DNA from: an uncultured delta proteobacterium
GTDB taxonomy: Bacteria; Myxococcota_A; Polyangia; Haliangiales; Haliangiaceae
Assembly (NCBI GenBank): GCA_963743525.1
Contig: CAVUQH010000002.1
Location: 299,530 to 363,529 of the forward strand
DNA length: 64,000 bases
Reading direction: 5' to 3'
Shown: positions 1 through 64,000 of the stretch, in pieces
Layout of the letters: every line of letters begins with the position of its first letter
Position numbering within the stretch: position 1 is the stretch's first letter
Program-made: the position numbers and the translations under genes
Notes under the pieces: model-generated
The model's input: only the letters and a program-made list of their open reading frames with translations
The model's database searches: none
What the model was told of the DNA's origin: nothing

Positions 1-564
1 TCGATCGTCATCGCGCTGCTGGGCATCGCCATCGGTGCGGTCCACCTGTCGTTCCACGATCGCTCCGCGGTCAAGGCGCGCAAGGGCCTGGGCATCGTGC
101 TGGCGGTTGCCGGCATCACCGGCGCGGTCACCTCGATCATGACCCCGGACCGCTACCTGCCGTGGATCTACAACGAGCAGGTCGCCTTCCAGCAGGCCAA
201 GGCCGAGGGCAAGGGCGTGATGATCGACTTCGCCGCCAAGTGGTGCGGGCCGTGCAAAGAGCTCGAGCTGACGTTCGGCTCCAGCCAGGTCTACGACCAC
301 ATCATGGCCAACTACGTGCCGCTGCGCTTCGACGTCAGCAACGGCACCGACGCCGACGAGGCCCACCAGGAGAAGTACAAGGCGGCCAATCTGCCGGTCG
401 TGCTGTTCGTCTCCCCCGACGGCAAGGTGCTGGCTCGCATCAACGAGTTCAAGAAGCCGGGCGAGTTCTTGAAAGTCGTGCAACCGGCGACCGAACAGCT
501 GCACTCGGCGAGCAAGACCGCGCGGCTCGACGAGCCGGCCACGGTACCCGGCCAGGGCGGTTGA
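1..564 (+). CDS. DsbD-like thiol:disulfide interchange protein, C-terminal part (TM helices plus thioredoxin domain); 5'-truncated by the window edge
   Basis: Frame is open from base 1 with hydrophobic segments, followed by IDFAAKWCGPC and the LPVVLF cis-Pro region. Confidence 0.8.
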   Translation, partial: SIVIALLGIAIGAVHLSFHDRSAVKARKGLGIVLAVAGITGAVTSIMTPDRYLPWIYNEQVAFQQAKAEGKGVMIDFAAKWCGPCKELELTFGSSQVYDHIMANYVPLRFDVSNGTDADEAHQEKYKAANLPVVLFVSPDGKVLARINEFKKPGEFLKVVQPATEQLHSASKTARLDEPATVPGQGG

Positions 565-47347: not shown

Positions 47348-48440
47348 GTGTCGGTTTCACGCTGCGTCGAGATCCTGGCCGAGCTGATCGGCTTCCCCAC
47401 CCAGAACCCGACGGGCGACGAGGTCGCGCTGTGCGAACGGCTGGCCGTCTTGCTCGACGAGCGCGGCGCCGATCAGTCCGAGGTCGTCGAGGTGCCGCGC
47501 GATGCCGGGCGCTCCGGCTACGTCTACGCGCGATTCGGCGAGCCGCGCCTGCTGGTCAACGTCCACGTCGACACTGTGCCGCCCAACACCGGCTGGAGCC
47601 GCGATCCGCACCGAGCCGAAGTCACTGACGACCGTGTCATCGGACTGGGCTCGGCCGACACCAAGGGCGCCATCGCCTGCGTCCTGCGCGCGCTCGAGGC
47701 CGCCCGGCCGGACGGTGTCGGAGTCCTGTTCAGTGGCGACGAGGAGCTGGGCACCGGCGTCGTGCCGGTCTTCCTCGCCTCCGAGCGCGCCGCCGGCATC
47801 GAGCGGGCGATCGTGTGCGAGCCCACCGGTCGCGCCGCCGGCACCCGCCACCGCGGCGTCGGCGCCTACCGCGCCCGCTACCGCGGCCTCGGCGGACACT
47901 CCTCCGGCGCCGATCACATGCCCAAGCCGGTCGTGACCATGGCCAGGCTGGCGCTCGAGCTCGACGAGATGAGCCGCCGCTGGCTGAGCGAAGGCCCCGA
48001 CGACATGAAGGGCCTGTGCACCAACGTGGCGTCGCTCGACGGCGGTGTGGCGTTCAACGTCGTCCCCGACGCGGCCAGCCTGACCTGGTCGGTGCGGCCC
48101 CCGCCCGGCTTCGACGCGGGCCGCTTCGCCGCCGAGCAGGCCGAGGCGGCACGGCGCGTCGACCCGGCGATCGAGATCGAGCAGGTGCTCGACCACCTGC
48201 CGTTCCAGACCCGCGACGTCGAGCCGTTCCGCGCCCTCCTGGGCGACCGGGTCAGCGGCTTCACCGGGCTGCAGTTCTGGACCGAGGCCGCGGTGCTGTC
48301 GCAGGCCGGCATCGACGCCGTGGTGCTGGGCCCCGGATCGAATCGAGCAAGCACACACTGCCGACGAGTGGGTCTCCCTCGACGACCTGGCCTGGGCCGA
48401 GGAGCTGTTCACCCACGTGTTCGCGAGCACCCGCGCATGA
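47348..48440 (+). CDS. argE: Acetylornithine deacetylase (M20 family); frameshift near 48340
   Basis: HVDTVP, GSADTKG, DEE and CEPT motifs; C-terminal IEQAHTADEWV in a shifted frame ending at TGA 48440. Confidence 0.85.
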
Positions 48441-49563
48441 AACCGGACGAGGTCGTCCTCCGCTTCCTCGAGAGCACCGCGCGCCCGGCGGAGGCGGCGC
48501 AGTACCTGTCGCTGTTTCGCGCCGAGCGGCCGGAGAGCTTCGCCACCCTGGCGGTCTCCGACACCGTCATGCGCGAGGACGGCGGCGCCCTGGTCACCGA
48601 CCTGCGCTACCTGTCGCGCCTCGGACTGACCCCGGTGGTGGTGCTCGGCCTGCTGTCGCCCGCCTGCGCCGAGGCCGACGCCGAGCGCCTGCGCGATCGC
48701 CTGGCCGGCGACGTCGGCGTCGACGTGGTGGCGCCGGAACGCGCGCAAGAGATGGCCCGCGCCGGTCGAATTCCCATCGTGCCGCTGGCCGCACCGGCCG
48801 ACACGGACGCCCGCTGGGCGGTGTTCGGCGACATGGTCGACGCGCTGGCGGCGCGCAAGGTGATCTTCGTCGGCCGCCACCCGGGGCTGGTGCCCGAAGG
48901 ACGTCGGCCGCCGTCGATCGTCAACATCACCACCGAGCTCGATGCGCTACTGGTGCCCGGCGTGCTGCCGCCCGGACAGACCGCGCTGCTGGCGCAGGCG
49001 GCGAAGCTACTCGAGCGGGGCACGCGCCGGCGAACCGCGTCGGTGACCTCGCCACTGGAGCTCCTGCGCGAGCTGTTCACCGAGCGCGGCGCCGGAACTC
49101 TGTTGCGACTGGGCTCGCGCGTGCACCGCTTCGCCGCCTACGCCGACGTCGACCGCGAGCGACTGGTCGCGCTGGTCGAAGGCGCTTTCGACCGCCGACT
49201 GCTGCCCGGCTTCTTCGACCGCGCGCCCGACGCGATCTACCTCGCCGACGACTACCGCGGCGCCGCCATCATCGAGCAGACACCGCTGGGCGGCTATCTG
49301 AGCAAGTTCGCCGTCGGTCTGGCGGCCCGCGGCGAGGGCGTGGCCCGCGACCTGTGGCGGGTGATGGAGGCCGACTACCCGCGGCTGTTCTGGCGCTCGC
49401 GAACCGACAACCCGATCGCCAGCTGGTACGCCCAGCACTGCGACGGCCTCCAGCGGGGCCCCGACTGGTGCGTCTTCTGGCGAGGCGTTGACACCGACGA
49501 GATCCCGCAGATCGTGGCCCACGCCCGGGCCGCGCAGGTCGATCTCGGCCCACTCCCGTGTAG
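48437..49563 (+). CDS. N-acetylglutamate synthase/kinase-type protein (AAK-like domain plus DUF619/NAT domain); 3' end uncertain
   Basis: RELFTERGAGTL, YLSKFAV..RGEG, LFWRSRTDNPIASWY; the open frame runs on to 49735 over the opposite-strand gene. Confidence 0.8.
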
Positions 49564-49604
49564 GTGGCCCTGGGGGCTAGACCCCCACCTGAGGACAGCT
49601 CTCC

Positions 49605-50208
49605 CTACTCGTCGTCGGGGGTATCGCCCGGCATCCCCTGGGTGCGCTTCTTCAGATCGAGGATCGACATGGACGCCTCCATGTCAGTGTCCAGGTCCGG
49701 GGCGTCGTCCTCGTGCCAGGTCAGGTTCTGCATGACCCGGATGACGCACTGCTCCATGGTGGGGTTGTTCCACTCGCTGGAGACAAAGGTCACATCCGAG
49801 GTGGTGGCCGTCCCGTTGTGGACGTGGAGCTTGTAGTTGATGTGGACCCGCTCGAACTTGCCTGGCTCGCCGTGGTAGCAGTCCGAGGCCGCCTTCATGA
49901 CGTGCTGCGGGACATCCCCGCCAACGAACAGCGACTCGCGGTGAACCTGCTGTGCGTGAGCCAGGCGCTCCTCCTCCGTCATGTTGGCGACGTTCCGGAG
50001 TGGCTGGCTCGGTGGCTGCCGGGGAATGCCTGGGCAGCGGAACCCGCGGACCCGGCACCGGATGGGGTGCCGCCGGCTGCGCGGACGCAGCCGGGGCTAC
50101 CGCCCTCGGTGTGTCAGGTGTAGGTGGATCGGAGTTGATCTCCCACAACAACGCCACGATGGCGATGGCGACTCCGGCTCCCAGCGCGACGAGGGCCCAG
50201 CGGGTCAT
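49605..50208 (-). CDS. Membrane-anchored protein with AgmX/PglI (TonB-C-like) C-terminal domain; frameshift near 49995
   Basis: TM helix, Pro-rich linker, DCY...SSEWNNPTMEQCVIRVM. Confidence 0.6.
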
Positions 50209-50434
50209 CTCCAGCTCCCGTGATACCGGGGTGCGCCGCCCCAGGCAAGGGGACAGTTCCGCCGAGGTCACACGATTGCACGCCTATTACAAGGTGATGT
50301 CATCAAACACGGGGTAACCCCGTCTTCTGACAGGCTGCTCCCCACGGGTGACCTCGGGTCCCCCCTCCCCATGTGGGACTCTGTCCCCCCACAGATCTCG
50401 GCTGTAACAGCCCTGAAATACAGCATAGGCCCTC

Positions 50435-50450
50435 CGGCACACCCGTTGCA
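50435..50450 (+). promoter_or_regulatory. sigma54 -24/-12 promoter candidate
   Basis: CGGCACACCCGTTGCA with GG-N10-GC spacing, 72 nt before ATG 50523. Confidence 0.6.
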
Positions 50451-50522
50451 CAAAGAACCCTCGTCACTGCACCAGCTCACTCTCCCCACCCATCGCCGGG
50501 TTCCACAGGAGGCAAGGGAAAC

Positions 50523-52316
50523 ATGACCCCCAATCTTCGCAGCATGATGCTCTCGGGTATCGCCCTGCTGCTCGCCGTTCCGGCGGCGCAAGCAGCAAGC
50601 ACTCACTCGGACGTCCAGACTCTCCTCATTCGGAACGGCGAGAACGCCGGTATCACCCGGCGCGGATCCGACGGTCGCGACCGTCCGCTTCAGGATGCCT
50701 ACCCGGGCTCCGAGCACTCGGCGCTGATGCAGCGCGACGACGGCACCATCATGATCTTCACGATGGCGACCTACGAGATCAACGGCCAGCTGCCCAACCA
50801 TCGCATGCAGATGCTGTGTGCCGAGATCAACTTCGACTCGATGGCCGGCCCGCAGGTTTCGACCCTCAAGTACGTCACCAACCTCAACGGCAACCGCTAC
50901 CGTAACGCGAACCACATCCGCGTGACCAAGGTCTTCGGCATGCCGCTGGTGACCTTCAACTACGCGCCTGACAATCGCGCTCGTGCCTACCAGCAGGTGT
51001 TCGGCCCCGGCTGCACCCCGCTGTCGGACATGACCGAAATCATGCGCAGGAACAACGACGACTGCTCGGAGACCGACGCCGAGTCAGGCCGAAATCATCG
51101 TCAAGCAGGACGGCGACACCGCGTACCTGGCCTCGGTCCACGGCTGCAACGGCAACGGCACGCGACGATGCGTGGATGGCCGGCACCTCGGTCACCAAGC
51201 TGGCCGACGGCACCTTCAACATCAAGAAGATGTGGGCGCTCTCAATCGAGCCCAAGGAAGAGCGCATCGCGCCTGAAGATCATCCCGACGACGATCGCGA
51301 ACATGGTCGTCGCGTGCGGTACCGCGGGCAACACCCAGCCGCCCAACAAGGGCGTCCGCTGCTACGGCGTCAACTACGACACCAACGGCGAGCAGGGCGA
51401 GAACGCCAACTCGCGCCTGATGTGGCGCCAGTACATCGCCGAGCGCGATGGCGAGACCTACTACACCAACATGCGCGCCGCTCCGATCCTCGACTCGACC
51501 GGCGCCCCGACCAACATGGCGATCGCCGACTACCAGATGCTGACCCAGCGCCGCCGCCGCGGTAAGGGCACCGCGCAGCTCAAGGCTGTCGCCCTCACCT
51601 TCAAGGCCGACGGCGTGGACGTCATGAACGTCGCGCAGGACAACCTGTTCCCGGCCTCGGACGCCACCCACGCGTCGATCTGCCAGACCCAGTACGGCAC
51701 CACCGGCCAGGAGCAGTCGGTCGCGATGCTCATCTCGAGCTCGGTCAACGGCGCGACTGGCGCGTTCGGCACCGGCGAGTTCGTCAAGTACGACCCGACG
51801 ACCCGCATGATCAACCCGATCCAGAAGGTCGGTCTCAAGGCCGCCATCGACAACGCCTGGCTGCCCAACATCTACGGCGGCAACCCCAACACCCAGGGCC
51901 GTAACTTCGTCAGCTGCTTCAGCGGCATCAAGAACCCGGGCTACCACGTGACCGGCGGCTACATGAGCGACGTCAAGAACTTCGTCGCCGTCCCGGCCAA
52001 CACCCGCCGCATGCGCGAAGGCGCCACCATCGCCGAGGACAAGCTTGCCCTCGAGCTGGTGCTGGTCCCGACCGTCATCGACGAGCCGGCCTCGACCGAC
52101 CCGACCGACCCGGGCACCACGGATCCCACCGATCCGAACAACAACCCCGACAACCCCACCACCCCGACCGACCCGACCAATCCGACCGACCCCGGCAACA
52201 ACAGCGGTAGCGGCGTCGGCGGCGTCGGCGGTTGCAGCACGGGCGCCTCGGGTGGCGCTGGCTCGCTGGCCTTCCTCGGCCTCGCGCTCCTTGCCATCCG
52301 TCGTCGTCGCAACTAA
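50523..52316 (+). CDS. Secreted MYXO-CTERM surface protein (compensating frameshifts at 51085-51270)
   Basis: Signal peptide; DPT-rich linker; C-terminal GGCSTG..LAFLGLALLAIRRRRN. Confidence 0.85.
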   Translation: MTPNLRSMMLSGIALLLAVPAAQAASTHSDVQTLLIRNGENAGITRRGSDGRDRPLQDAYPGSEHSALMQRDDGTIMIFTMATYEINGQLPNHRMQMLCAEINFDSMAGPQVSTLKYVTNLNGNRYRNANHIRVTKVFGMPLVTFNYAPDNRARAYQQVFGPGCTPLSDMTEIMRRNNDDCSETDAESGRNHRQAGRRHRVPGLGPRLQRQRHATMRGWPAPRSPSWPTAPSTSRRCGRSQSSPRKSASRLKIIPTTIANMVVACGTAGNTQPPNKGVRCYGVNYDTNGEQGENANSRLMWRQYIAERDGETYYTNMRAAPILDSTGAPTNMAIADYQMLTQRRRRGKGTAQLKAVALTFKADGVDVMNVAQDNLFPASDATHASICQTQYGTTGQEQSVAMLISSSVNGATGAFGTGEFVKYDPTTRMINPIQKVGLKAAIDNAWLPNIYGGNPNTQGRNFVSCFSGIKNPGYHVTGGYMSDVKNFVAVPANTRRMREGATIAEDKLALELVLVPTVIDEPASTDPTDPGTTDPTDPNNNPDNPTTPTDPTNPTDPGNNSGSGVGGVGGCSTGASGGAGSLAFLGLALLAIRRRRN

Positions 52317-52355
52317 CCCTCCCCCAACCATCCCGAACTACGGAGACCACCGACC

Positions 52356-53267
52356 ATGAAGAAGCAGAATCTAATCGCTGTCCTCGCGGCGATGATGCTG
52401 GCGGCCTCCACGGGGTGCATTGGTGGACTGGACTCGGTCAATCCCCCTGGGACCCCGGACCCGACCCCGGATCCGAATCCCAACCCGAACCCGAATCCCG
52501 ACCCCCAACCGACTGCTGCTCAGCAGCTGTTCGACACCAACGTGAAGCCTCTTCTCACCAGCTGCGGCGACGCAGCGTGCCACGGCGGCACCGGGACTTA
52601 TCCCCTTAAGTTTCTCGGTACCGACGCCACCACCTGGTACGACACCATCACGGCAGAGCAGTCTTTGACCGGCGGATTCGAGCCCACGCTCGCCTCCCTG
52701 ATCATCAAGCTGTCCGAGCCGCACCACGACCTCCCGGCGTGGACCGACACCCAGTCGGCCGCGATCACCGAGTGGCTCCTGCAAGAGCGTGTTGACCGCA
52801 ACCTCGACCCGATCGACCCCGGCACCGGAGATCCTCCGCCGCCGACGGACTCGGTCGCCGCCCTGGCCGCCTGGTCGGGCTGCATGACCAAGTCCAACTG
52901 GGACAACGCCCAGATGGGCGAGTGGGCGAACAAGCGGACCAACAACGGCGAGCAGTGCTCTCAGTGCCACGATCAGGGTGCGTACCGCTTCAACACCAAC
53001 AACGACAACGACACCATGTTCCAGATGAACCAGTACCAGCTGTTCATCATCAGCTTCTTCACTGTGGAGACGGAGCTGGACGGAACCGTCAAGGTCATCC
53101 CGGCGATGGACAAGATCATGCGTATGGGCAACGGCTCGACCCTGCACCAGCGCTTCAACGTCGATCCCAATGACCAGTACTTCCAGTACCTGCAGAACTT
53201 CTACGACCTGACGAACGCCACCATGGCGGCAGGTCAGTGCGGCCCCGCACAGTTCCCGCAGCCCTAG
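52356..53267 (+). CDS. Putative diheme cytochrome c lipoprotein, paralogue 1
   Basis: Lipobox STGC; CGDAACH (CX4CH) and CSQCH. Confidence 0.75.
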   Translation: MKKQNLIAVLAAMMLAASTGCIGGLDSVNPPGTPDPTPDPNPNPNPNPDPQPTAAQQLFDTNVKPLLTSCGDAACHGGTGTYPLKFLGTDATTWYDTITAEQSLTGGFEPTLASLIIKLSEPHHDLPAWTDTQSAAITEWLLQERVDRNLDPIDPGTGDPPPPTDSVAALAAWSGCMTKSNWDNAQMGEWANKRTNNGEQCSQCHDQGAYRFNTNNDNDTMFQMNQYQLFIISFFTVETELDGTVKVIPAMDKIMRMGNGSTLHQRFNVDPNDQYFQYLQNFYDLTNATMAAGQCGPAQFPQP

Positions 53268-53278
53268 AAGTAACCCCA

Positions 53279-53308
53279 CTCGCCGCGGCCACGGTCGCGG
53301 CGAGTTTT
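53279..53308 (+). terminator. Intergenic hairpin with T-tract
   Basis: CTCGCCGCGGCC-AC-GGTCGCGGCGAG-TTTT. Confidence 0.55.
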
Positions 53309-53387
53309 CCCTTCCCTCCCCCTCAGTCCCGCCGCCTCCGGGCGGCGGGACCCCTGCCGGCCCCCCGAGAACAGCACCACCACCACC

Positions 53388-54248
53388 ATGAAAACGCGCA
53401 GCCTCATCGCAGTACTCGGCACGTTCCTTCTGGCGGCTTCGGCCGGTTGCTCCGGCATCCTCGATCCCGGCAGCGACCCCGGCATCACCCCGCCGGGCGG
53501 CCCCGACGCCGGCACCGGCGGCGGCGGCAGCGCTGCCAAACAGCTGTTCGAGACCAACGTCAAGCCACTCCTCAGCAACTGCAACGACGCCGCCTGTCAC
53601 GCCGGCCCGGGCACCTACCCGCCCAAGTTCCTCGGCACCGGTGGCGACACCACCTGGTACGACTCGGTCGTCGCTACCCCCGAGGTCACCGGCAACTTCG
53701 ACCCCTCGCTGGCCAGCCTGATCTCGCATCTGGCGACCACTCACGAGGGCAACCCGCCCTGGACCGCCGCGCAGAAGACCGACATCACCAACTGGATGCT
53801 GGCCGAGCGCGACGAGCGCGGCCTCGACGATCCCAACAACACGCCCCCCGGCGATCCGCTTGCCGAGTGGTCGGGTTGCATGACGCTCGACAACTGGAAC
53901 GCCGCCGGAATGGGCGACTGGGCGCAGAAGCCCGCCGAGGGCGGCACCGTCTGCTCCTCGTGCCACGGCGCGGGCCTCAAGCAGTTCGACACGAACACCG
54001 ACAGTGACACCATGTTCGCGCGCAACCGCTACGAGGTCTTCATCACCGGCTTCTTCACCGTGAGCAACGGTCAGGTCATGCCGGCCTACGACAAGATCAC
54101 CACGAAGTCGAACGGCGACAACAACCACCCGACCTTCCAGTCGGGCACCGCCGACCCGTACTACCAGAAGCTGCAGAACTTCTACGACCTCACCATGGCT
54201 GCGAAGAACGCCGGAACCTGTGGACCGGCGGAGTTCCCGGCTCCGTAG
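53388..54248 (+). CDS. Putative diheme cytochrome c lipoprotein, paralogue 2
   Basis: Lipobox SAGC; CNDAACH and CSSCH; collinear with paralogue 1. Confidence 0.75.
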   Translation: MKTRSLIAVLGTFLLAASAGCSGILDPGSDPGITPPGGPDAGTGGGGSAAKQLFETNVKPLLSNCNDAACHAGPGTYPPKFLGTGGDTTWYDSVVATPEVTGNFDPSLASLISHLATTHEGNPPWTAAQKTDITNWMLAERDERGLDDPNNTPPGDPLAEWSGCMTLDNWNAAGMGDWAQKPAEGGTVCSSCHGAGLKQFDTNTDSDTMFARNRYEVFITGFFTVSNGQVMPAYDKITTKSNGDNNHPTFQSGTADPYYQKLQNFYDLTMAAKNAGTCGPAEFPAP

Positions 54249-54273
54249 AAGTCCCCGAGACTCGACTCTCTTC

Positions 54274-54313
54274 GACGGCGCTGCTTTCCCCCGCAGCGCC
54301 GTCTCTTCATTTT
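54274..54313 (+). terminator. Probable intrinsic terminator
   Basis: GACGGCGCTGC...GCAGCGCCGTC followed by TCTTCATTTT. Confidence 0.55.
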
Positions 54314-54318
54314 CGGCT

Positions 54319-57289
54319 ATGAAGGTCCCGACAATGGAAGTACCCGAGAAGAAGACAGCTCCCGACGAGACTCTGACTCTCCCCGAAGAGACCTCCACCA
54401 GCGAGCCCGCCCCACTCCCTCAAGGCGACCGAAGCCGCTACGTGCTGCTGCACGAACACGCGCGCGGAGGCCTCGGCCGTGTGCTCCTCGCCCGAGACCA
54501 GGCGCTGGATCGACAGGTCGCGGTCAAGATCTCGATCTCGGACAGCCCGCGGGCGCAGGCTCGGTTCGCCCAGGAGGCCCGTATCACGGCGCGCCTCCAG
54601 CATCCCGGCATCGTGCCCGTCCACGACGCGGGCATCTGGTCGAACGGTCAGCCGTACTGCGCGATGAAGTTCATCGCCGGGCGCTCGCTCCGCGATCTGC
54701 TCCGCGAGCTCCATGACGACTTCGAGGGACGCCTGGCTCTCTTGCCGAAGATCGCAGCGGTCGCGGAGGCCCTGGCCTATGCCCATGACCAGGGGATCGT
54801 TCATCGCGACATCAAGCCTTCCAACATCATGGTCGGCGACTTCGGCGAAACCATCATCGTCGACTGGGGCATCGCCGTCGACCTGTCCGAGCGCGCAGGA
54901 ACGACCAGCGGACCGAGACTGGGCTCTGCCGCTGGCACGCCGAGGCTACATGGCGCCGGAGCAAGAGCGTGGTGAGCCGGTCGACGCTCGCGCCGACGTC
55001 TTTGCCCTCGGCGTCGTCCTCTACGAGACGCTGAGCGGCCGGAAGCCGGCCCAGCTCGGCAAACCGTCAACGTCCGCGATGTCGAGCCGCGAATTCCCCG
55101 CGAGCTCGAGGCGATCATCGGCAAGGCCACGGCCGAGGCCCGGCCAACGCTATCCGACGCGGGCGAGCTCGACGCGACCTCCGCGCCTACCTCGATGGCC
55201 AGCTGGTCCGCGCGCATCGCTACAGCTGGCGCCAGCGTGTTCGCAGACGCGCCCGTAAGCACAGCGCTTGTCGGCGCTTGATCCTGGCGTGCCGGCACCA
55301 GTCATCGGTGTGCTCCGCGCGAGCGCGGCCGAATGTGAGTCTCCGACGAGCTCGCGGGCGTCGGGATACGACCTGGTCCCACTTCTCGTTGTGGGGCTGG
55401 CCGTGGTGGCGCTGCTGGGAATCCACCGCGCGGGCAATGCAGGACCAAACTGTGAGGTTCCCGATTCCGAGATGGCGAATGTCTGGGACGCGGGGACCCG
55501 AGCTCGGCTCGAGACCGCTCTTGCAGGGCTGTCCCCGCCCGATGGTCAGCAGGCGTTCACGCGAATCGCCCGCGAGCTGGATCGCAAGCGTGGCCAGTGG
55601 ATGGAGATGCGCGCGGGCCGTTTGCGAAGCAAGCCACGTCCGTGGCACGGAGCCGAACGGGTCTTCGTTCGGCGGATGGAATGCCTGGATCGCCGCCGGG
55701 GCGAGATGGCGGCACTGACCGCCGTTTGGTCGCGCCGGCGCCCGACACGCGACCGGCAGAACTGATCTCTGCCGTACTTCGCCTTCCCTCGATCTCCGCA
55801 TGCGCAGACACCGCGTCGCTCCAGGCCACGTCTCCGCCGCCCGAGGATCCTCAGCTTCGCCAGCGTGTCCATGAATTCTGCGCGCGAAGCTGGACGATGC
55901 AAAGACCCTGAGCGCGCTGGCGCGCGACAAGGAGGCGATGGCCGCCGATCCGACGCGCTCTGAAACCGGTACGCGAGCTCGGACTACCCCCCGCTGCTGG
56001 CGGACTTGCTGCGAACCTACGGTTCGTCCTGGAGACCTGCGGCCGACCAGCAGGGCGCGCACGATGCCTGGCAGGAGGCGGCACTCGAGGCGGCACGCGG
56101 CGGCAACCCGATTATCGGTCGCCCAGATCCAGACGCAACTGCTCATATTCGTCGTTGACGAGCTCCGAGAGCCGAAGCTAGCGGCGGCGATTCAGCCGCT
56201 CGCGGCGGCCAGCGCCGCCCTGGTGCCAAATGACGTGAGAACGCAGGCAAATTGGCATCAGGCACTTGGGCGTGGTCGCCTGGCGCAAACACGACTACGA
56301 GCAAGCGATCTCCGAGTACAAGACCGCCCTGTCCATGGTCAACAGCTCAAGGATCCCAGTGTCACGATGACGTGGCTTCCCTGCTCAACGATCTAGGCAT
56401 GTCCTACCGCGGCAACGGCGACTCGACGAGGCGGAACATGCCTACCAGCGCGCGCTGCAGATGTACACAGACACTACGGTGCCAAGCACCCCAACGTTCT
56501 GTTCGTGCTCAACAACCTGGGAATCCTCGAGGAGAGCCGCGGCCACTACGACAGGGCGCTCGCCTACTACCAGAAGGCGCTCGCTCAAGCGGGCCGTTCT
56601 CGGCGAGAACCATCCGAGCGTGCGCATATACCCTGTCGAGCATCGGGGTTGTGTACGAAAAAACCGGCGACGCCGAGAACGGATACCGCTACCTGAAGCA
56701 GCCCTGGACATTCGCATCAAAGCCTACGGGGAAGACCACCCCAGGGTCGCCGCGGATCTCGACAACCTGGGGACAGCACTGATGGTCAAGAACGACATCG
56801 CGGGGGCGAGAGAGATGTTCCAGCGCTCCTACGATCTCCACCGCAAACACACAGAGGCGAACGACATTCGCCTCGCGAGTTCGCTGAACAATCTCGGGCT
56901 CGCTGACCGCGGCCTTGGCCAACTACGGCGCGGCGATCCGCGAGTGCCGCAAGGCGCTCGACATACGCCTGCGGGTGCTGAAACCGACGGCGCACGAAGT
57001 TGCGCAGACACGTCTATGCCTGGGCCGCGCACAGATGGAATCCGGTGGCGCGCACGCGGCTGTCGAGCAGCTGTCCCTCGGTCTCAAGGCATACGAAAAG
57101 ACCGAGCACGATCCCGGCACAGTTGAATCGAGCGCGATTCGATCTCGCGCGCGCGATCCTCAAGTCGGGAGGCTCCCGCGACAAGGCGCTCGAGCTCGCA
57201 CACCAGGCGCGCAAGGCGATTGTCGCCGCCGACGACAGCTCCGAGCTCGTCGGCGACATCGATGCCTGGTTGAAGAAGCATGCGCGCTG
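54319..57289 (+). pseudogene. Ser/Thr kinase + TM + TPR protein, heavily frameshifted
   Basis: [20 protein letters not shown] and YMAPEQ, plus TPRs (LNNLG, GEDHP) scattered across frames. Confidence 0.75.
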
Positions 57290-57418
57290 ACACCGGCGGC
57301 GTGCGGGCAAGAGAAAGCCGGCGCCGCAGGAGGGGACTGCGGCGCCGGCTGAGGGAAAGAGCGACGGCCTGGCGGGATGGGGAGGGAGGAGGAGCGCTGG
57401 CCGTCGCGAAACGTGATC

Positions 57419-57960
57419 CTACAGCTGACTCTTCGACCAGAGCTCGTAGTCGCCCTGGCCCTCGAGGACGAGGTCGCGCTCGTGCGGCTTCAGCAGGATG
57501 TACTGGGTGCCATCGTCGGAGAACATGGCGAAGTTGGCCTCGCAATCACCCGGGCCTCCCTGGGTGATCTTCATGTTGACGTTCATGTTGGCCGGGATCG
57601 TCGTCCCAGGTGTAGTCGTAGCCGGCCTCGTCGGGCAGCTCGGTGACCGTGAAATGATAGGCGGCGTTGATCGGCACGTCGGTGCAGTCGCCCATGTCGG
57701 CGACCGTTACGTTCACGGTCCACTCTCCGGTGGGGATACAGCCCGCATCGGCGGCTGGCGGCGTGCCGGGCGGGGTCAGGCTGCCGCTGGTCGCCAGCGT
57801 AGCCGAGCAGACGAGATCCGCTTCGCCATTGACGTTGACGCCGCCATCGCCGTTGCTGTTCCGGGCCGGGATTGACGCCGTCGAGCGCACACCCGCCGCC
57901 GGCGAACGCGGCGATCACGGCGGCAAACACGAAGGTAACCAGTCTGGAGCTACGAGCCAT
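57419..57960 (-). CDS. Hypothetical Cys-containing lipoprotein (two frameshifts)
   Basis: Lipobox GGGC; fragments join to end ...LEGQGDYELWSKSQL*. Confidence 0.55.
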
Positions 57961-58139
57961 GATGCCGATGGGTGGAGCAACTTGCAGGCCATCTCCTGTC
58001 CTTGTGATTTCGCGCAGCTGGGGACTGAGGGATGGAGCCTCCGCCCCCGCGCCAGGGCCCCCAGACCCCGCGGCCACCGGGCTAAGAGGCCGAGATCACG
58101 TCCGTCGCCCCTGGAACAGGGAGTGCAAATCCCCACCCC

Positions 58140-59239
58140 ATGCTTCGCTCCGCCGGCCTTCTCATCGCCATCGCCGCCATCGCCTTCCCGGGCTGTTCGC
58201 GGCACGAGAAGTCATCTGAACCGGCCCCGGCCAAGACCGCAGGCTCCGGCCAAGACCGAGGCAGCCGCCGCGCCCACCGCCCAGGCCAACGCCGGCGACG
58301 GTGTGGTGGACAGCCGATGGTCGTCATCGCAACCTCCAGGACTGGAACCCTGCCGAGTTCAAGGGCAAGACGCGGCCGCCGGTGGAAGGATCCCGCCGTC
58401 TATGTCGACGGGCGGGAAGTCGGCGTGCTCTGGTTCGGCGAGCTGCCGCGATCGCTGAAGCCAACCTGGATCGAACGGACGTGGAAGGAGCTCGACTTCA
58501 AGCCCGGCGACAAGGGCCCCCGCACGCGCACGATCAAGGTGCGACGCTACCGGCTCGACCACTATCTCGAGGCGGTCGGCGTTGACATCAGCAAGGTCAA
58601 GCGCGTCCAGATCTACGGTGGCAAGGGCAACGTCTCGGACATCTCCGGCGCGCAGTTCCGCAAGTTCCGCAAGACGATCATGTTCGGCTTCGGTCGCCTC
58701 ACCTCGGGCAAGGCGATTCCCTACTACCCCGAGGGACTGAAGCTGCGACCAGATGTTCGACCGCATGGTTGGCGTCGCCGTCTACATCGACAAGGCGCCG
58801 CCCAAGCTCGACAAGGACGACTACCCGCTGGGCGCCGACGGCGAGCGCACCGCCGACATTCCCTACTTCGGGAAGCCGATCCGCGGCGGCATTCGCGTCT
58901 ACAAGAACGACGTGCTGGCCACGACGATCAAGCGCAAGCACCTCGATCCCAAGGCGGCGTACGCGGTGCACAAGGACAACGGCGAGCTCTGGTACGACCT
59001 GGTGCCGGCGCTCGAGTCGCTCGGGGTCAAGATGTCCGACGTGGTCGACGCCGAGGTCGTGTTCGACGAGCGGCGGGTCAAGATCATCCACCGCGACGAG
59101 CTGCTGAAGCGGCAGTTCATCGCCACGTCGCAGAACCGCGGCGCGATTCGAGCTGGACGACGGCACGGTGGTCGAGGCGCTCACGCTGTACACCAAGAAG
59201 CTGCCCGGGCCGATGCCGCCGATCTCGGATGACGAGTAG
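58140..59239 (+). CDS. Hypothetical lipoprotein with an internal duplication (several frameshifts)
   Basis: Lipobox FPGC; GC3-biased fragments join to end ...PISDDE*. Confidence 0.65.
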
Positions 59240-59288
59240 GCGGCCCCGACGCCCCGCGCGGATGGCCAAAACGGGCTAGAGTTGTTCC

Positions 59289-60509
59289 GTGCCCAAAGCC
59301 ACCCTCGACCCGCGGCTGCGCGCGCTGTATCTGATCGCGGTCGCGATCGGGGTGTTCCTGGTCCACACGTGGTGGATCGTCGGCACCGTCGCGGCGATTC
59401 AGGCGGTGTTGTGGATGGCGGTGGGGCTGGGCGTTCCGCGACTGCTCCGCCAGCTGCGCAAGCTGGCGCTGTTCCTCGGCTTCATCCTGGCCTGTTTCGC
59501 GCTGGTCACGAACGATCCGGCGACGGACCGCTGGCGGACGCTGGTCATTCCGGTTCTCCACTGGGGCATCGACATCAACCTGTCGGGCGCGCTGGTCGGC
59601 CTGACCATGGTCATGCGCGTGTTGTCGGTGGTGCTGGCCTCGCAGGTGATCCGCGCCGGCGACCCCAAGGCGCTGGCCGCCGGCCTCGGTCGCCTGGGCG
59701 TGCCGCGGACGGTGTCGCTGTCGATCGACGCGGTGCTGGCGTTGCTGGGCGAGCGCGGCCGGCGCGGCGGCGGCGGCGGCGGTGGCGGCACCGGCGGCGG
59801 CGGTGGTGGCGGTCGTGGGCGCGGCGATGGCGGCGGGGACGGCAAGGCCGAGGGCGGTGGCTTCTGGGCCGGGCTGCGGCGGCTGGCCCGCGGCGACGTG
59901 TCGCTCATCGCCGCCAGCCTGCGCCGGCAGATGGCCCGCGCCGAGGAGCACGTGGTCGCCCAGGGCGAGACCGAGGGCCGGCGCGCGCGCGACGTCGCCG
60001 TCATCTCCGGCATCGCCCTGACCATGCTGGGCATCAAGGCGCTCAAGCTGCTGCCCGGGCTGCCGTTCGCGCCCGGGCACAAGGGCGTCATCCTCATCCC
60101 GCTGTACATCGTCGCCGGGCGCCTGACCAAGTCCCGCGCAGGCGCCACGCTCACCGGTCTGACCATGGGCTCCTGCGCCTTTCTCCTGGGCGATGGGCGC
60201 TACGGCATCTTCGAAATCTTCAAGCACGTGGCCCCGGGCGTGGTGGTGGACCTGGGCATGCCGATCATGCGCGGGCGCCGGGCCATCTGGGCCTGGTCGC
60301 TGTTCGGCCTGGTCATCGCCCTGGGGCGCTTCGCCACCATCGCCTGCATCGCACTGGCAGTGCAGGCACCGGCGGTGGTGTACGCCTTCCTCCTCCCCGG
60401 TCTGGCCATCCACGCCACGTTCGGCGTGCTTTCGGGTATCGTTACCGCTCCCTTGATTCGCGCGCTGCCGCAAGACGATGAAGAAAACGCAGCCACGGAG
60501 GCAGAATGA
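59289..60509 (+). CDS. ECF-transporter-like membrane protein (EcfT/CbiQ-like N-half, Gly linker, S-component-like C-half)
   Basis: LDPRLR start and multiple TMs; poly-Gly linker; APGHKGV..GATLTGLTMG and further TMs. Confidence 0.7.
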   Translation: MPKATLDPRLRALYLIAVAIGVFLVHTWWIVGTVAAIQAVLWMAVGLGVPRLLRQLRKLALFLGFILACFALVTNDPATDRWRTLVIPVLHWGIDINLSGALVGLTMVMRVLSVVLASQVIRAGDPKALAAGLGRLGVPRTVSLSIDAVLALLGERGRRGGGGGGGGTGGGGGGGRGRGDGGGDGKAEGGGFWAGLRRLARGDVSLIAASLRRQMARAEEHVVAQGETEGRRARDVAVISGIALTMLGIKALKLLPGLPFAPGHKGVILIPLYIVAGRLTKSRAGATLTGLTMGSCAFLLGDGRYGIFEIFKHVAPGVVVDLGMPIMRGRRAIWAWSLFGLVIALGRFATIACIALAVQAPAVVYAFLLPGLAIHATFGVLSGIVTAPLIRALPQDDEENAATEAE

Positions 60510-61348
60510 GTAAGCTCGTGACCGGCGACGGTCGAACCCACGTCAAGTCGTCCCTGATGCGGGAGTCGCTGCAAAACCGCGACGTCCTGTCCGGCACCGA
60601 CAGCGACTACGACTTCCAAATCTTTCCCGACGTCGCCCTGATCAGCGTCGGCGGGCAGAGCATCTTCGACCGCGGTCGAGAGGCGCTGGTTCCCCTGGCC
60701 GAAGAGATCGCAGCGGTGCGCGAGAACCACCGCATCGTGGTCGGCGTCGGCGGCGGCACCCGCGTGCGTCACACCGCGTCGATCGCCCTCGATCTGGGCC
60801 TGCCGGTCGGCGGCGTGGCCCAGCTGGTCGGCTCGATGGAGGAGCTCAACGCCATCGTGCTCAACGCGCTGCTGTCGAAGCACAACTCGATGCCGATGCA
60901 GCGCGACCACTTCTGGGAGCTGCCGCTCTATCTCAACGCCGGCATGATCCCGATCTGCATCTCGATCCCGCCGTACCACCTGTGGGAGCCGCCGCCCGAG
61001 CACGGCCACCTGCCGGCCCACGGCTCGGACTTCGGCCTGTTCCAGATGGCCGAGGTGTTGGCGTTCAAGCAGCTGATCTTCGTCAAGGACGAGGACGGGC
61101 TGTACGACAAGGATCCCAAGAAGCACGACGACGCCAAGCTCATCCGCCACGCCACGCTGGCCGAGCTGACCGACGACGCCGGCCACTGCAAGCTCGAGGA
61201 GAGCATCCTCGACAAGCAGCTGTTCTGGGCCTGGAACCACGCGCGCAACATCAAGCGCATCCAGATCGTCAACGGCCTGGTGCCGGGCGAGCTCACCAAG
61301 GCTCTCGACGGTCAGGACAACGGCACCGTCATCGTCAAGGAGGACTGA
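60506..61348 (+). CDS. mosA: Molybdenum storage protein alpha-like subunit (amino-acid-kinase/UMP-kinase fold)
   Basis: HVKSSLMRESLQNRD, DRG..LVPL, LDLGLPVG, PPYHLWE and NGLVPGELTKAL motifs. Confidence 0.75.
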   Translation: MSKLVTGDGRTHVKSSLMRESLQNRDVLSGTDSDYDFQIFPDVALISVGGQSIFDRGREALVPLAEEIAAVRENHRIVVGVGGGTRVRHTASIALDLGLPVGGVAQLVGSMEELNAIVLNALLSKHNSMPMQRDHFWELPLYLNAGMIPICISIPPYHLWEPPPEHGHLPAHGSDFGLFQMAEVLAFKQLIFVKDEDGLYDKDPKKHDDAKLIRHATLAELTDDAGHCKLEESILDKQLFWAWNHARNIKRIQIVNGLVPGELTKALDGQDNGTVIVKED

Positions 61349-61350
61349 AC

Positions 61351-62163
61351 GTGGCCGAGCGCAAGACCATTGCCAGCGCCCTGCAGGGCGACAGCCTCAC
61401 CGACACCGACGCCAGCGCCATCGACTACAAGGGCGTCGCCGTCATGCCCGACGTGCGGGTGATCAAGATCGGCGGACAGTCGGTGATGGACCGCGGCCGC
61501 GCGGCCCTGTTCCCGATCATCGAAGAGCTGGTGGCCGCCCGCAAAGAGGGCATCCCGATGCTGCTCCTGGCCGGCGGCGGCACCCGCGCCCGGCACATCT
61601 ACGCCATCGCCTCGGAGCTGGAGCTGCCCACCGGCGTCCTGGCCGCCGTGGGCAAGTACGTGCCGATGCAGAACGCCCGCATGCTGCAGATGCTGCTGGC
61701 CAAGCACGGCGGCGTGTTCATCCTGCCGGACGACTTCGAGAAGCTGCCGCTGTACATCAACATGGGCTGCGTGCCGATCATGGCCGGCATGCCGCCGTTC
61801 GGCTACTGGGAGAAGCGCGGCGACACCGGCGGCCGCATCCCGCCGCACCGCACCGACGCGGGCGTGTTCCTGTCGGCCGAGTTCCTCGGCTGCAAGCGGG
61901 CGATCTTCATCAAGGACGAGCACGGGATGTACACCGACGATCCGAAGAAGAACCCGGACGCCACGCACATCCCGCGCATCAGCGCCACCGAGCTGCTCCA
62001 GCGCGACCTGCCCGACCTGATCCTCGAGCGGGTCTGCATCGAGTACCTCACCCGCTCGCGCTGGGTGAAGGAGCTGCAGGTGGTCAACGGACTGGTCCCC
62101 GGCGAGGTGACCCGGGCGATGCGCGGCGAGGACGTCGGCACCATCGTCTATCACGAAGGCTGA
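61351..62163 (+). CDS. mosB: Molybdenum storage protein beta-like subunit
   Basis: SLTD, VIKIGGQSVMDRGRAA, GTRARHIY, GMPP, IPPHRTDAGVFL and IPRIS motifs. Confidence 0.8.
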   Translation: MAERKTIASALQGDSLTDTDASAIDYKGVAVMPDVRVIKIGGQSVMDRGRAALFPIIEELVAARKEGIPMLLLAGGGTRARHIYAIASELELPTGVLAAVGKYVPMQNARMLQMLLAKHGGVFILPDDFEKLPLYINMGCVPIMAGMPPFGYWEKRGDTGGRIPPHRTDAGVFLSAEFLGCKRAIFIKDEHGMYTDDPKKNPDATHIPRISATELLQRDLPDLILERVCIEYLTRSRWVKELQVVNGLVPGEVTRAMRGEDVGTIVYHEG

Positions 62164-62180
62164 GCCGTCTCCCCGAGGCA

Positions 62181-62227
62181 AACGAAAAGCGGCTCCGAGC
62201 TCATGGCCCGGAGCCGCTTCTGGTTTC
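62181..62227. terminator. Bidirectional terminator between convergent genes
   Basis: AAGCGGCTCCG...CGGAGCCGCTT hairpin with A/T-rich flanks. Confidence 0.7.
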
Positions 62228-62242
62228 GAATCGAGCCGAGGC

Positions 62243-62836
62243 TCAGTTCTTGGTCGCGCCAGCGGCCGGGTCGGCCGGCTTGGCGCTGTCGCCGTCGCCG
62301 TCGCCGTCGCCCTTGCCGGTGTCGCCGGCTTCCATCTTCTTCATCCGGGCGTCGACCTCGGTCTTGATGGCGGCGACATCACCGCCCGCCTTCGGCTTCA
62401 TCGTCACCTTGATGCCCGTGTCGGTGTCCTCGAAGGTGGAGTCGCTGTCCTTGATGAACGCCGGGCACGGCCCAGCCTGGCCACCGGTGCCTTCGCCGGT
62501 GTGCTCGACCTTGTCGCCGGCCTTGCCCTGCTGAGCGGCCAGCACCTTGGCGCGCGCCTGGATCTCCTTGACCGCGTCACCCTCGGCGCTGACGGTCACG
62601 ACGACGGCTCCGTCGGCCTCGCTGACCTCGGTCTTGGCGCCTTCGACCGTGTTCGGGCAGTTCTTCTGCTTGTTGGGCATGGTCGAGGCCTCGGGCTTCG
62701 CGGGCTCTGGCGCCTTCTGCGCCGGCTCGGTCGGCGTGGGCGCCGGGGCCGGGGTCTCGGTCTTGTTCTCGTCCTTCTTCTTGCAGGCACCGCTCATGGC
62801 GATGGCGAAGATGGAGATCGCAAACAGCGTACGCAT
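62243..62836 (-). CDS. Hypothetical lipoprotein
   Basis: Lipobox SGAC-KKK; GGAGG RBS; two CP-containing repeats. Confidence 0.8.
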   Translation of the reverse strand: MRTLFAISIFAIAMSGACKKKDENKTETPAPAPTPTEPAQKAPEPAKPEASTMPNKQKNCPNTVEGAKTEVSEADGAVVVTVSAEGDAVKEIQARAKVLAAQQGKAGDKVEHTGEGTGGQAGPCPAFIKDSDSTFEDTDTGIKVTMKPKAGGDVAAIKTEVDARMKKMEAGDTGKGDGDGDGDSAKPADPAAGATKN

Positions 62837-62941
62837 CGTAGTGGAGCCTCCCTAAATGGCTAGTTGAGGCGTCGAGGCTATCACGGTGGGCGAGAACGTG
62901 TGGGCGGCCGCGCGGCGCCCGGGATCGGCTATCCTCGCCCC

Positions 62942-63325
62942 GTGCTCGCCCGCACCCTGCCCCTGCTCCTGGCCGTCGCCCTGCTCGCGACGATGCCGGG
63001 CCGTGCCGGCGCCGGCAGCAAGCCGTCGGCGGACACCCTGGGCCTGGGCGTTCCCGGTGGCTCCCGCGTGGTCGCCGTCCAGACCTGGCGCTCCGGGCGG
63101 AGCTTTCGCAAGACGGTTCAGTACTACCAGAAGCTCCTGTCTCGCCGCGGAATCGCCCGCGACGAGCTGCCCGTCTACCGCTATCGGGGGGTGGTCGTCG
63201 CCCGCTTCCTGGCCACCGATCCGGCGGCTCGATGGGCGGCGATCCACGTGTCAGAGGCGCGGGGCGAGACCCGAATCTACCTCCTGCCGGCCAAGCCCCT
63301 TGACCCCGCCGAAAAGCCAAGGTAA
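62942..63325 (+). CDS. Small hypothetical secreted protein
   Basis: Signal-peptide-like N-terminus; TATCCT 6 nt before the GTG. Confidence 0.6.
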   Translation: MLARTLPLLLAVALLATMPGRAGAGSKPSADTLGLGVPGGSRVVAVQTWRSGRSFRKTVQYYQKLLSRRGIARDELPVYRYRGVVVARFLATDPAARWAAIHVSEARGETRIYLLPAKPLDPAEKPR

Positions 63326-63353
63326 AGGAATTCTCCCCTGTTCGGGGACCCAC

Positions 63354-63427
63354 TCGGGGATCGTCTAACGGCAGGACGGCAGACTCTGGATCTGTCTATC
63401 TAGGTTCGAATCCTAGTCCCCGAACCA
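63354..63427 (+). tRNA. tRNA-Gln (CTG)
   Basis: Cloverleaf with anticodon loop CTCTGGA, GGTTCGAATCC T-arm and encoded CCA. Confidence 0.95.
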
Positions 63428-63459
63428 CCCCAGACATCCCAACCAAGGAAACGATTCAC

Positions 63460-63531
<72 letters not shown>

Positions 63532-64000
63532 CCCAAAGAAGCTCCGGTTCGTCCGCCGGAGCTTTGTTTTTTTCGGCTCGACCTTACCCCACCGGGACCG
63601 GGCCGCCGCAGGCGGCCCGCCCGCGCTGGGCGCGGGGCGAACCCTCCGGGTTCGACTTCGCAGCGCCCTCCCGCGCGAGCGCGGGGACGCTGCTTCGTCG
63701 CCGCGGCTGCAAAATTCCGCTCCGCGGAATTTCTGCAGCCAGCGGTCGAGTCCCGGTTCGGTCACCCCAAGAAGCTCCGGTTCGTCCGCCGGAGCTTTGT
63801 TTTTTTCGGCTCGACCTTACCCCACCGGGACCGGGCCGCCGCAGGCGGCCCGCCCGCGCTGTGCGCGGGTCGAACCCTCCGGGTTCGACTTCGCAGCGCC
63901 CTCCCGCGCGAGCGCGGGGACGCTGCTTCGTCGCCGCGGCTGCAAAATTCCGCTCCGCGGAATTTCTGCAGCCAGCGGTCGAGTCCCGGTTGGGTCACCA
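63532..64000 (+). repeat. Two near-identical 233-bp tandem tRNA-linked repeats (may continue past the window)
   Basis: Units 63532-63764 and 63765-63997; each starts with a terminator hairpin and ends with a copy of the tRNA-Glu 3' end. Confidence 0.95.

Follow-up and report, generated by a model that had tools for sequence, protein, structure and literature searches.

A divergent molybdenum-storage-like gene pair linked to a predicted EcfT-S fusion protein in Haliangiaceae: a candidate molybdate/tungstate operon

The 64,000-nucleotide stretch analysed here (the window; positions 299,530 to 363,529 of CAVUQH010000002.1, contig C2 of the 8.55 Mb, 97% complete assembly GCA_963743525.1 of an uncultured Haliangiaceae member) harboured a gene for a membrane protein (mem) followed by two genes, m1 and m2 (the mos pair), resembling the subunits of the molybdenum storage protein (MoSto). 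The combination of mem and the mos pair is conserved and real, and is built from known parts: a divergent MoSto subfamily on the one hand and, on the other, a predicted fusion of the EcfT and S components of transporters of the energy-coupling factor (ECF) type. This operon's involvement in molybdenum or tungsten handling is very probable.

Both members of the pair matched MoSto subunits in the PDB (m1: beta, E = 1e-59, and alpha, 6e-42; m2: beta, 1e-72, and alpha, 3e-43) with E-values 50-65 orders better than those to uridine monophosphate (UMP) kinases (2e-7 and 4e-8, respectively). They missed the PyrH family cut-offs (54-57 bits against 158 for the archaeal and 26-30 against 244 for the bacterial family), and a true pyrH was present elsewhere in the genome, on contig C8. 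Two adjacent paralogues of the AAK fold, far nearer to MoSto than to UMP kinases, were thus found, as is also the case for MoSto of Azotobacter vinelandii (PDB 2ogx, 4f6t, 6gu5, 6ris). The original prediction of a MoSto-type pair rather than UMP kinases was upheld by these scores, by the location of pyrH and by the phylogeny described below; its alpha and beta labels were loose, as m1 and m2 were both closer to beta. Distant mos loci abutted modABC, tupABC or TOBE genes, which anchors the pair to molybdenum or tungsten. It is scarcely credible that m1 and m2 are instead kinases for an organic substrate in a unit unrelated to these metals: the AAK fold, the remodelled cavity ligands and the NCBI label 'uridine kinase' on some MoSto homologues would fit such a role, but the E-values, the separate pyrH and the repeated occurrence of modABC, tupABC or TOBE genes next to the pair in remote taxa speak against it. 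On ten Azospirillum plasmids, L125 (NC_013859.1) among them, the annotation of MosB was uridine (monophosphate) kinase, so that MoSto homologues are under-counted in annotations.

The MoSto cage is an (alpha-beta)3 assembly that loads about 100 Mo with ATP. Residues K39, R81, M147, R167 and K188 of m2, which was 47% identical to the Azospirillum MosB, corresponded to K42, R83, M149, R168 and K189 of the beta subunit, which we take to be its ATP-binding and pumping residues, and were invariant in all 45 homologue rows. In m1, the position of the ATP-site lysine was occupied by S47 and was never a lysine across the m1 clade, whereas this lysine is present in the Azotobacter alpha subunit; a MoSto beta variant (PDB 6ris_B) likewise has Ser at K42. 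The m1 protein possessed an alpha-like N-terminal arm, E112/E113 and an invariant H158 equivalent to alpha H156. An IQ-TREE phylogeny of 29 rows joined the m1 and m2 clades (88/86); a grouping of m1 with alpha was not rejected by the approximately unbiased (AU) test (p-AU = 0.18), and an independent duplication giving m1 and m2 was not established. Judging from their sequences, m1 and m2 likely represent a divergent MoSto subfamily that works in a MoSto-like manner, and they are likely to form an ATP-driven storage cage for molybdate or tungstate.

The mem product was the sole CbiQ match in the genome, and its match to the Pfam profile (residues 5-144, E = 4.6e-8) ended at profile position 140 of 216. 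In the VIA structural comparison of its AF2 model (pLDDT 88, pTM 0.86), residues 1-141 matched the EcfT membrane domain (Z = 9.2, root-mean-square deviation (rmsd) 3.3, 130 aligned residues) and residues 229-399 matched ThiT (Z = 14.5, rmsd 2.9, 162 aligned), with S components in all of the first 14 rows and the six-helix S-component fold in place. The ECF-like membrane protein of the original prediction was therefore supported and can be described more exactly, from the CbiQ match and the VIA folds, as a predicted EcfT-S fusion without an ATPase of its own. Conservation was counted across 95 divergent members of the mem family, which comprised 272 representatives at 50% identity and, by source names, reached Bradyrhizobium, Nevskiaceae and Alcanivorax. 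The full set of two coupling helices with two Ala-Arg-Gly motifs that characterizes EcfT was not found: the coupling helix was interrupted by a disordered Gly-rich insert (median 28 aa; more than 25% Gly in 63 members), the xRG motif at residues 200-202 was partly kept (R201 in 45, G202 in 68) and the second ARG motif was missing. The S domain possessed near-invariant basic residues (K/R250 in 94, K265 in 93, R/K304 in 88 and R347 in 89 members) together with D321 (95 of 95), a basic pocket that may suit an anion. Its first helix carried a small-xxx-small motif (A237xxxG241; G, A or S at position 241 in 87 members, and A, G or S at position 237 in 70) of the AxxxA docking type.

ECF transporters (EcfAA'T + S; ThiT, FolT, PanT, CbiMQO) share with mem the S fold (Z = 12-14.5), the EcfT membrane domain and the small-xxx-small motif, whereas mem differs from them by its broken coupling helix, its single partial ARG motif, its basic pocket, its Mo/W gene context and the joining of T and S in one chain, which precludes S exchange. 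No EcfA was found over the cut-off in the 97%-complete genome with the one model used (best score 164 against 315 bits). Among 23 classified ABC ATPases neighbouring mem (18 of the 28 in metagenomes and 5 from genomes), ModC/WtpC was the best match for 21, and an ECF ATPase appeared among the top five matches of none. Lacking ATPases and with a degenerate T, mem falls outside ECF transporters as defined. PDB sequence matches of mem were rejected as Gly-linker noise, Foldseek returned no E-value below 0.001, an Atlas search with the S domain gave only leads at 0.90, and no match was found in the plasmid search. The complex prediction of mem with m1 and m2 scored 0.00 and gave no verdict.

The linkage of mem to mosAB in other genomes, on which the original prediction depended, was borne out by the neighbourhood survey. 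Strong matches to mem came from 27 relatives, of which 21 had the mos pair directly downstream and one more a remnant of it; for the remaining five, mos was elsewhere on the contig (two) or mem was at a contig edge (three). Across 251 genomes of the phylum, mos was present in 15 and mem in nine, all nine mos-positive. The best 80 of 189 metagenomic mem loci (GC 42-74%) included 47 with mos, 37 with mod or tup genes, 10 with the myxobacterial module described below and 11 with none of these, 10 of the latter being under 4.1 kb. Merging loci at 70% identity left 31 groups: mos was present in 22 of them, mod or tup genes in 17 and nothing in three. As kin are not independent, these counts do not amount to statistical tests. 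The mem-mos linkage among the 27 relatives is far beyond chance. Of 15 binding proteins classified, 13 scored over the ModA cut-off and one was TupA-like. Three proteins that were 37-43% alike (P0161, P0306, P0307) were fusions of mem with an m1-type subunit. Three other fusions (P0186, P0195 and P0308, the last joining mem to a multicopper-oxidase-like protein) were single sequences, maybe read-through, and were not relied on.

Several mem loci differed in composition. Four (L253, L278, L279, L282) combined mem with modABC, a WD40 beta-propeller gene and an Azotobacter-type alpha/beta pair, so mem partners the classical MoSto type too. Three others (L245, L250, L247) had three mos paralogues, or TupA/WtpC-like genes next to mem, and are candidate tungsten-specialized versions. 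The mem/mos/mod loci L213, L215 and L222 contained genes for helix-turn-helix-TOBE regulators of ModE-like type and for an exported protein with an EF-hand.

The mos pair was found in 34 of 61 relatives, and this divergent subfamily is therefore common in non-diazotrophic Haliangiales: nifH scored over the cut-off neither in the host genome nor in any of the 61 relatives, in line with the original remark that the window has no nif genes. NifH-like matches below the cut-off in three genomes of the same class (G050, G055, G056) are probably BchL/ChlL or NifH-like reductases. The host genome encoded moaA and seven molybdopterin-family matches, as well as two modA genes and a modBC pair located 20 kb before the window and 80 kb from mem. 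The idea that a non-canonical transporter stands in for canonical uptake did not survive this result, and mem as a ModABC substitute was ruled out, ModB being over the cut-off in 24 of the 27 mem-positive relatives as well. No TupA was found in the genome; its single PBP_like_2 match had two permease genes for neighbours, an arrangement that we read as that of a phosphate transporter. At a site separate from the modBC genes, which are on C2, two modA genes flanked a response regulator and a histidine kinase (C13:140001-143519), possibly a molybdate-sensing two-component system.

With modC so frequently adjacent, mem could be a normal ECF-type importer, active by means of a borrowed ModC, TupC or other ABC ATPase. 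A ModC-mem fusion (P0195, a single contig) and the partly kept xRG motif agree with this, but the CbiQ match that stops short, the Gly-rich insert, the missing second ARG motif and the distance to modBC in the host make it very unlikely, as does the docking of ModC on helices of the ModB type. That mem moves nothing and instead senses molybdate to regulate the cage appears about as hard to sustain: the S fold is common to receptors, as described in part of PMC11109136, and mem has no motor, yet the AxxxA-type motif, which receptors lack, is kept as A/GxxxG/A, and the fusions found contained no signalling domain.

The reading preferred here, at slightly short of an even chance, is a sink-driven entry of molybdate or tungstate through mem, without an ATPase, into the m1/m2 cage. 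The basic S pocket (K250, K265, R304, R347) would bind MoO4 or WO4 outside, and the S domain, being covalently held, would tip to the inside on its degenerate T scaffold with no EcfA, as solitary S components can. At the inner membrane face, mem would hand the oxyanion to the cage; m2 would use ATP to pump it into an (m1m2)3 assembly, the free anion would stay low and storage would drive uptake. Without the ATP-site lysine, m1 would be the likely docking subunit, and its binding to mem is suggested by the fusions and the linkage. Such a route would be dedicated to storage, would operate beside ModABC/TupABC and would serve molybdenum cofactor (Moco) enzymes rather than nitrogenase. High Mo represses ModABC, and a storage-tied route would be sensible as luxury uptake under these conditions. 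Transport by S components without an ECF module has been reported for BtuM and BioY (in part of PMC11109136), as proposed for mem, which differs from them in keeping a T scaffold and in its linkage, in some cases by fusion, to an ATP-using store in the cytoplasm.

Several observations weigh against this reading. We know of no oxyanion among the substrates of ECF transporters, and the direction of flux is not readable from sequence. Solitary FolT2 was unable to transport alone, according to part of PMC7755397. Each mem-m1 fusion occurred on one contig only, and two genomes (G031, G035) had mem with the lipoprotein module and mos 85-108 kb away. Of 183 genomic mos loci the best 80 were surveyed, and mem adjoined 27 of these and was absent beside 53; no mem match was detected in 40 of the 41 whole genomes with mos but without adjacent mem, mostly Kofleriaceae metagenome-assembled genomes (MAGs) of unstated completeness. 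The cage therefore seems not to need mem, which appears to be an accessory that needs mos. The cavity also differed: only one of the six presumed alpha ligands (H114, E129, H130, H140, H156 and H157) was kept, the H156 equivalent in m1, while at the position of the presumed beta ligand D108 m2 had Met and m1 had Glu. In place of these ligands, other His, Glu and Asp residues were invariant. Ligation of polyoxomolybdate by His and Glu in the MoSto cavity is described in part of PMC6294228, and with most ligands replaced the stored material may differ. Lastly, ModB in most mem carriers and ModABC beside mem in many loci, mem often sharing one operon with modABC or tupABC, mean that a second importer needs a reason.

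This constant co-presence of ModABC/TupABC would be explained if these did all the uptake, while mem tethered the cage to the membrane and worked outward or as a release valve, unloading Mo or exporting excess tungstate or molybdate. The mem-m1 fusions, the broken coupling helices and the dispensability of mem in one clade fit this rather improbable alternative, as does MoSto release, described in part of PMC6448029 only as pH-dependent and ATP-independent. Against it, S components are high-affinity import receptors (PMC7755397 and PMC11109136, each in part), and the VIA match suggests that the conserved pocket is formed in loops whose counterparts in known S components are turned to the outside.

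Around the mos pair, a larger myxobacterial unit missed by the original prediction was found, consisting mainly of exported proteins (Table 1). Gene clustering of the 80 mos loci showed that lip4, a MYXO-CTERM protein, a two-haem cytochrome lipoprotein, lip5, lip8, f7, f9 and f6 travel with mos, with changing order and orientation; lip5 was present in 45 of these loci and lip4, as detected by tblastn, in 43. All families but f6 were found in the window at 49.6-63.3 kb, without a full-length copy elsewhere in the genome, and the module core recurred in further families within the order and within the class. All eight lip4 carriers among the 251 phylum genomes were mos-positive, and the 61 relatives comprised 30 with lip4 and mos, three with lip4 only, four with mos only and 24 with neither. 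Inherited gene order could account for some of this clustering, but a functional link is favoured by the rearrangements and by the way in which presence patterns match.

The AF2 model of an intact lip4 homologue (L057) had two domains whose ten best VIA rows were all SUOX/PruR, with middling scores (Z = 5.5-7.9, rmsd 3.7-6; PruR fold, 7.5; next row, 4.7). Like PruR and the SUOX enzymes (SoxCD, SorAB, YedY) in fold, and found near a two-haem cytochrome gene as is SoxCD, lip4 differs from them by its tandem domains, its lipid anchor and the absence of a sequence-level match and of a Mo-ligating cysteine, the lipobox Cys being its sole invariant Cys. A PruR-type pterin binder has, besides this fold, a pterin cleft of Asn, Tyr and Trp. 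Foldseek returned no E-value below 0.001 for the lip4 model, the superantigen rows for lip4 were rejected as shared beta-grasp folds, profiles of lip4, lip5 and cyt2 had no PDB match, Pfam/NCBIfam gave no family name for lip4, lip5, lip8, f6, f7 or f9, and an Atlas search with myxo3 gave no usable match (best 0.83).

Given this fold directly upstream of mem, the substrate could be Mo-organic (a molybdopterin or Moco fragment, a pterin or a metallophore complex) that is recovered from soil or prey: lip4 would bind it outside, mem would import it and the freed Mo would be stored. PruR binds pterins in the periplasm (in part of PMC11194511), the S components matching mem bind folate and other cofactors, the basic residues of mem could bind a phosphate, and lip4 tracks mos (8/8 carriers in the phylum, 30/33 among relatives). 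However, the lip4 fold scores are middling, the host makes its own Moco (moaA), lip4 is present in a clade without mem, and it is absent from most non-myxobacterial mem loci (any module gene in 10 of 80), so that such salvage is judged quite unlikely. Returning to sink-driven entry, in myxobacteria the exported lip4/myxo3/cyt2 module would capture or mobilize Mo outside, which is the weakest step of the proposal. A fuller version, a motor-less ECF derivative powered by the cage, in which m1 docks on T-S, ATP hydrolysis by m2 pulls molybdate directly out of the membrane pocket into a mineral store and, in predatory myxobacteria, the surface protein, the two-haem cytochromes and the cofactor-fold lipoprotein mobilize Mo from minerals or prey cofactors, is no better than an unlikely one. 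If it held, no oxyanion-specific S component would precede mem, and the storage sink of this transporter would be what powers it.

Table 1. Features of the mos locus in the window (nucleotide positions in the window; aa, residues of mem)
Feature	Position	Strand	Description
mem	59289-60509	+	GTG start, 406 aa open reading frame (ORF)
EcfT-like scaffold of mem	aa 1-~225		Gly-rich break ~160-190; CbiQ match, VIA
S-component-like domain of mem	aa ~229-399		VIA structural match
m1	60506-61348	+	280 aa ORF
m2	61351-62163	+	GTG start, 270 aa ORF
Hairpin	62187-62219	both	GC-rich, likely bidirectional terminator; folding against shuffles
f7/f19 family gene	49638-49916 (matched part)	-	membrane-anchored, no assigned function
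myxo3	50523-52316	+	~600-aa MYXO-CTERM surface protein
cyt2a	52356-53267	+	lipoprotein, two c-type haem-like motifs (Cx4CH, CxxCH), conserved Met/His
cyt2b	53388-54248	+	tandem paralogue of cyt2a, 52% identical
lip8	57425-57961	-	conserved Cys-containing exported protein, frameshifted here
lip4	58140-59238	+	lipoprotein, two sulfite-oxidase/PruR-like domains, frameshifted; hidden Markov model matches, homologue model
lip5	62243-62836	-	convergent lipoprotein, invariant CP motifs and His
f9	62864-63325	+	small conserved exported protein

The tight coupling of the three genes held in every detail, with all ORFs confirmed, an ATGA overlap between mem and m1 (60506-60509) and a spacing of 2 nt between m1 and m2 (61349-61350). 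The transcription unit is probably longer than these three genes, the end of lip4 lying 50 nt upstream of mem on the same strand. As for the terminator said to close the operon, the hairpin is real and stable (z = -3.5 on the plus and -4.6 on the minus strand; 0 of 200 shuffles equally stable), but the consensus terminator scan did not list it; because the better U-tract is on the minus strand, it is probably a bidirectional terminator common to the mos unit and the convergent gene. The Rfam search of positions 48000-64000 detected two tRNAs only and no Moco riboswitch. The nearest named loci were from Kofleriaceae/Haliangium MAGs, in agreement with the myxobacterial host inferred originally.

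The frameshifts of lip4 and lip8 are probably assembly errors, as the single-base insertions were absent in a same-genus genome and, at several places, in independent runs; lip4 was intact in G001. A Ser/Thr kinase-tetratricopeptide repeat (TPR) gene between cyt2b and lip8 (54322-57290), not counted in the module, was broken into several frames and, with lip8, lip4 and myxo3, suggests an indel-rich assembly of this region. An overlap of the gene for the exported protein f6 with the m2 end was confined to the clade without mem (L049:8776-9489 and about 30 other loci), where a GH114-like lipoprotein gene often came next. Downstream of f9, two tRNA genes (63354-63424 and 63460-63531) preceded a tandem repeat of ~233 bp (63538-64000) with a terminator-like hairpin at its start and a copy of the tRNA 3' end at its finish, possibly an integration-site remnant or a repeat array running off the window.

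MoSto has been studied as a free cytoplasmic cage in one diazotroph, with loading independent of uptake (part of PMC6448029). MosAB was called rare in PMC13144720, the portion of its main text consulted leaving Myxococcota unmentioned, and mosAB was noted in a nitrite oxidizer in part of a preprint (bioRxiv 10.1101/317552). In literature that covered subscription journals thinly and excluded supplements, no membrane partner of MoSto, exported module or molybdate ECF protein was described. In the one diazotroph locus viewed (Azospirillum), the membrane partner and the lipoprotein module were absent. ModABC, TupABC and WtpABC share the likely substrate of mem and often its operon, whereas the mem fold is unrelated to theirs and involves neither a binding protein nor an ABC ATPase. 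A cage with different internal ligands may be of use for polyoxometalate chemistry, and the system might be used as a component where the supply of Mo to nitrogenase is to be engineered. For the biology of these bacteria, a divergent MoSto subfamily is tied across distant taxa to an undescribed, predicted ATPase-less T-S membrane protein, which presents a fourth, testable way of handling Mo/W and may be a naturally occurring minimal system for the unsolved problem of motor-free substrate movement by S components.

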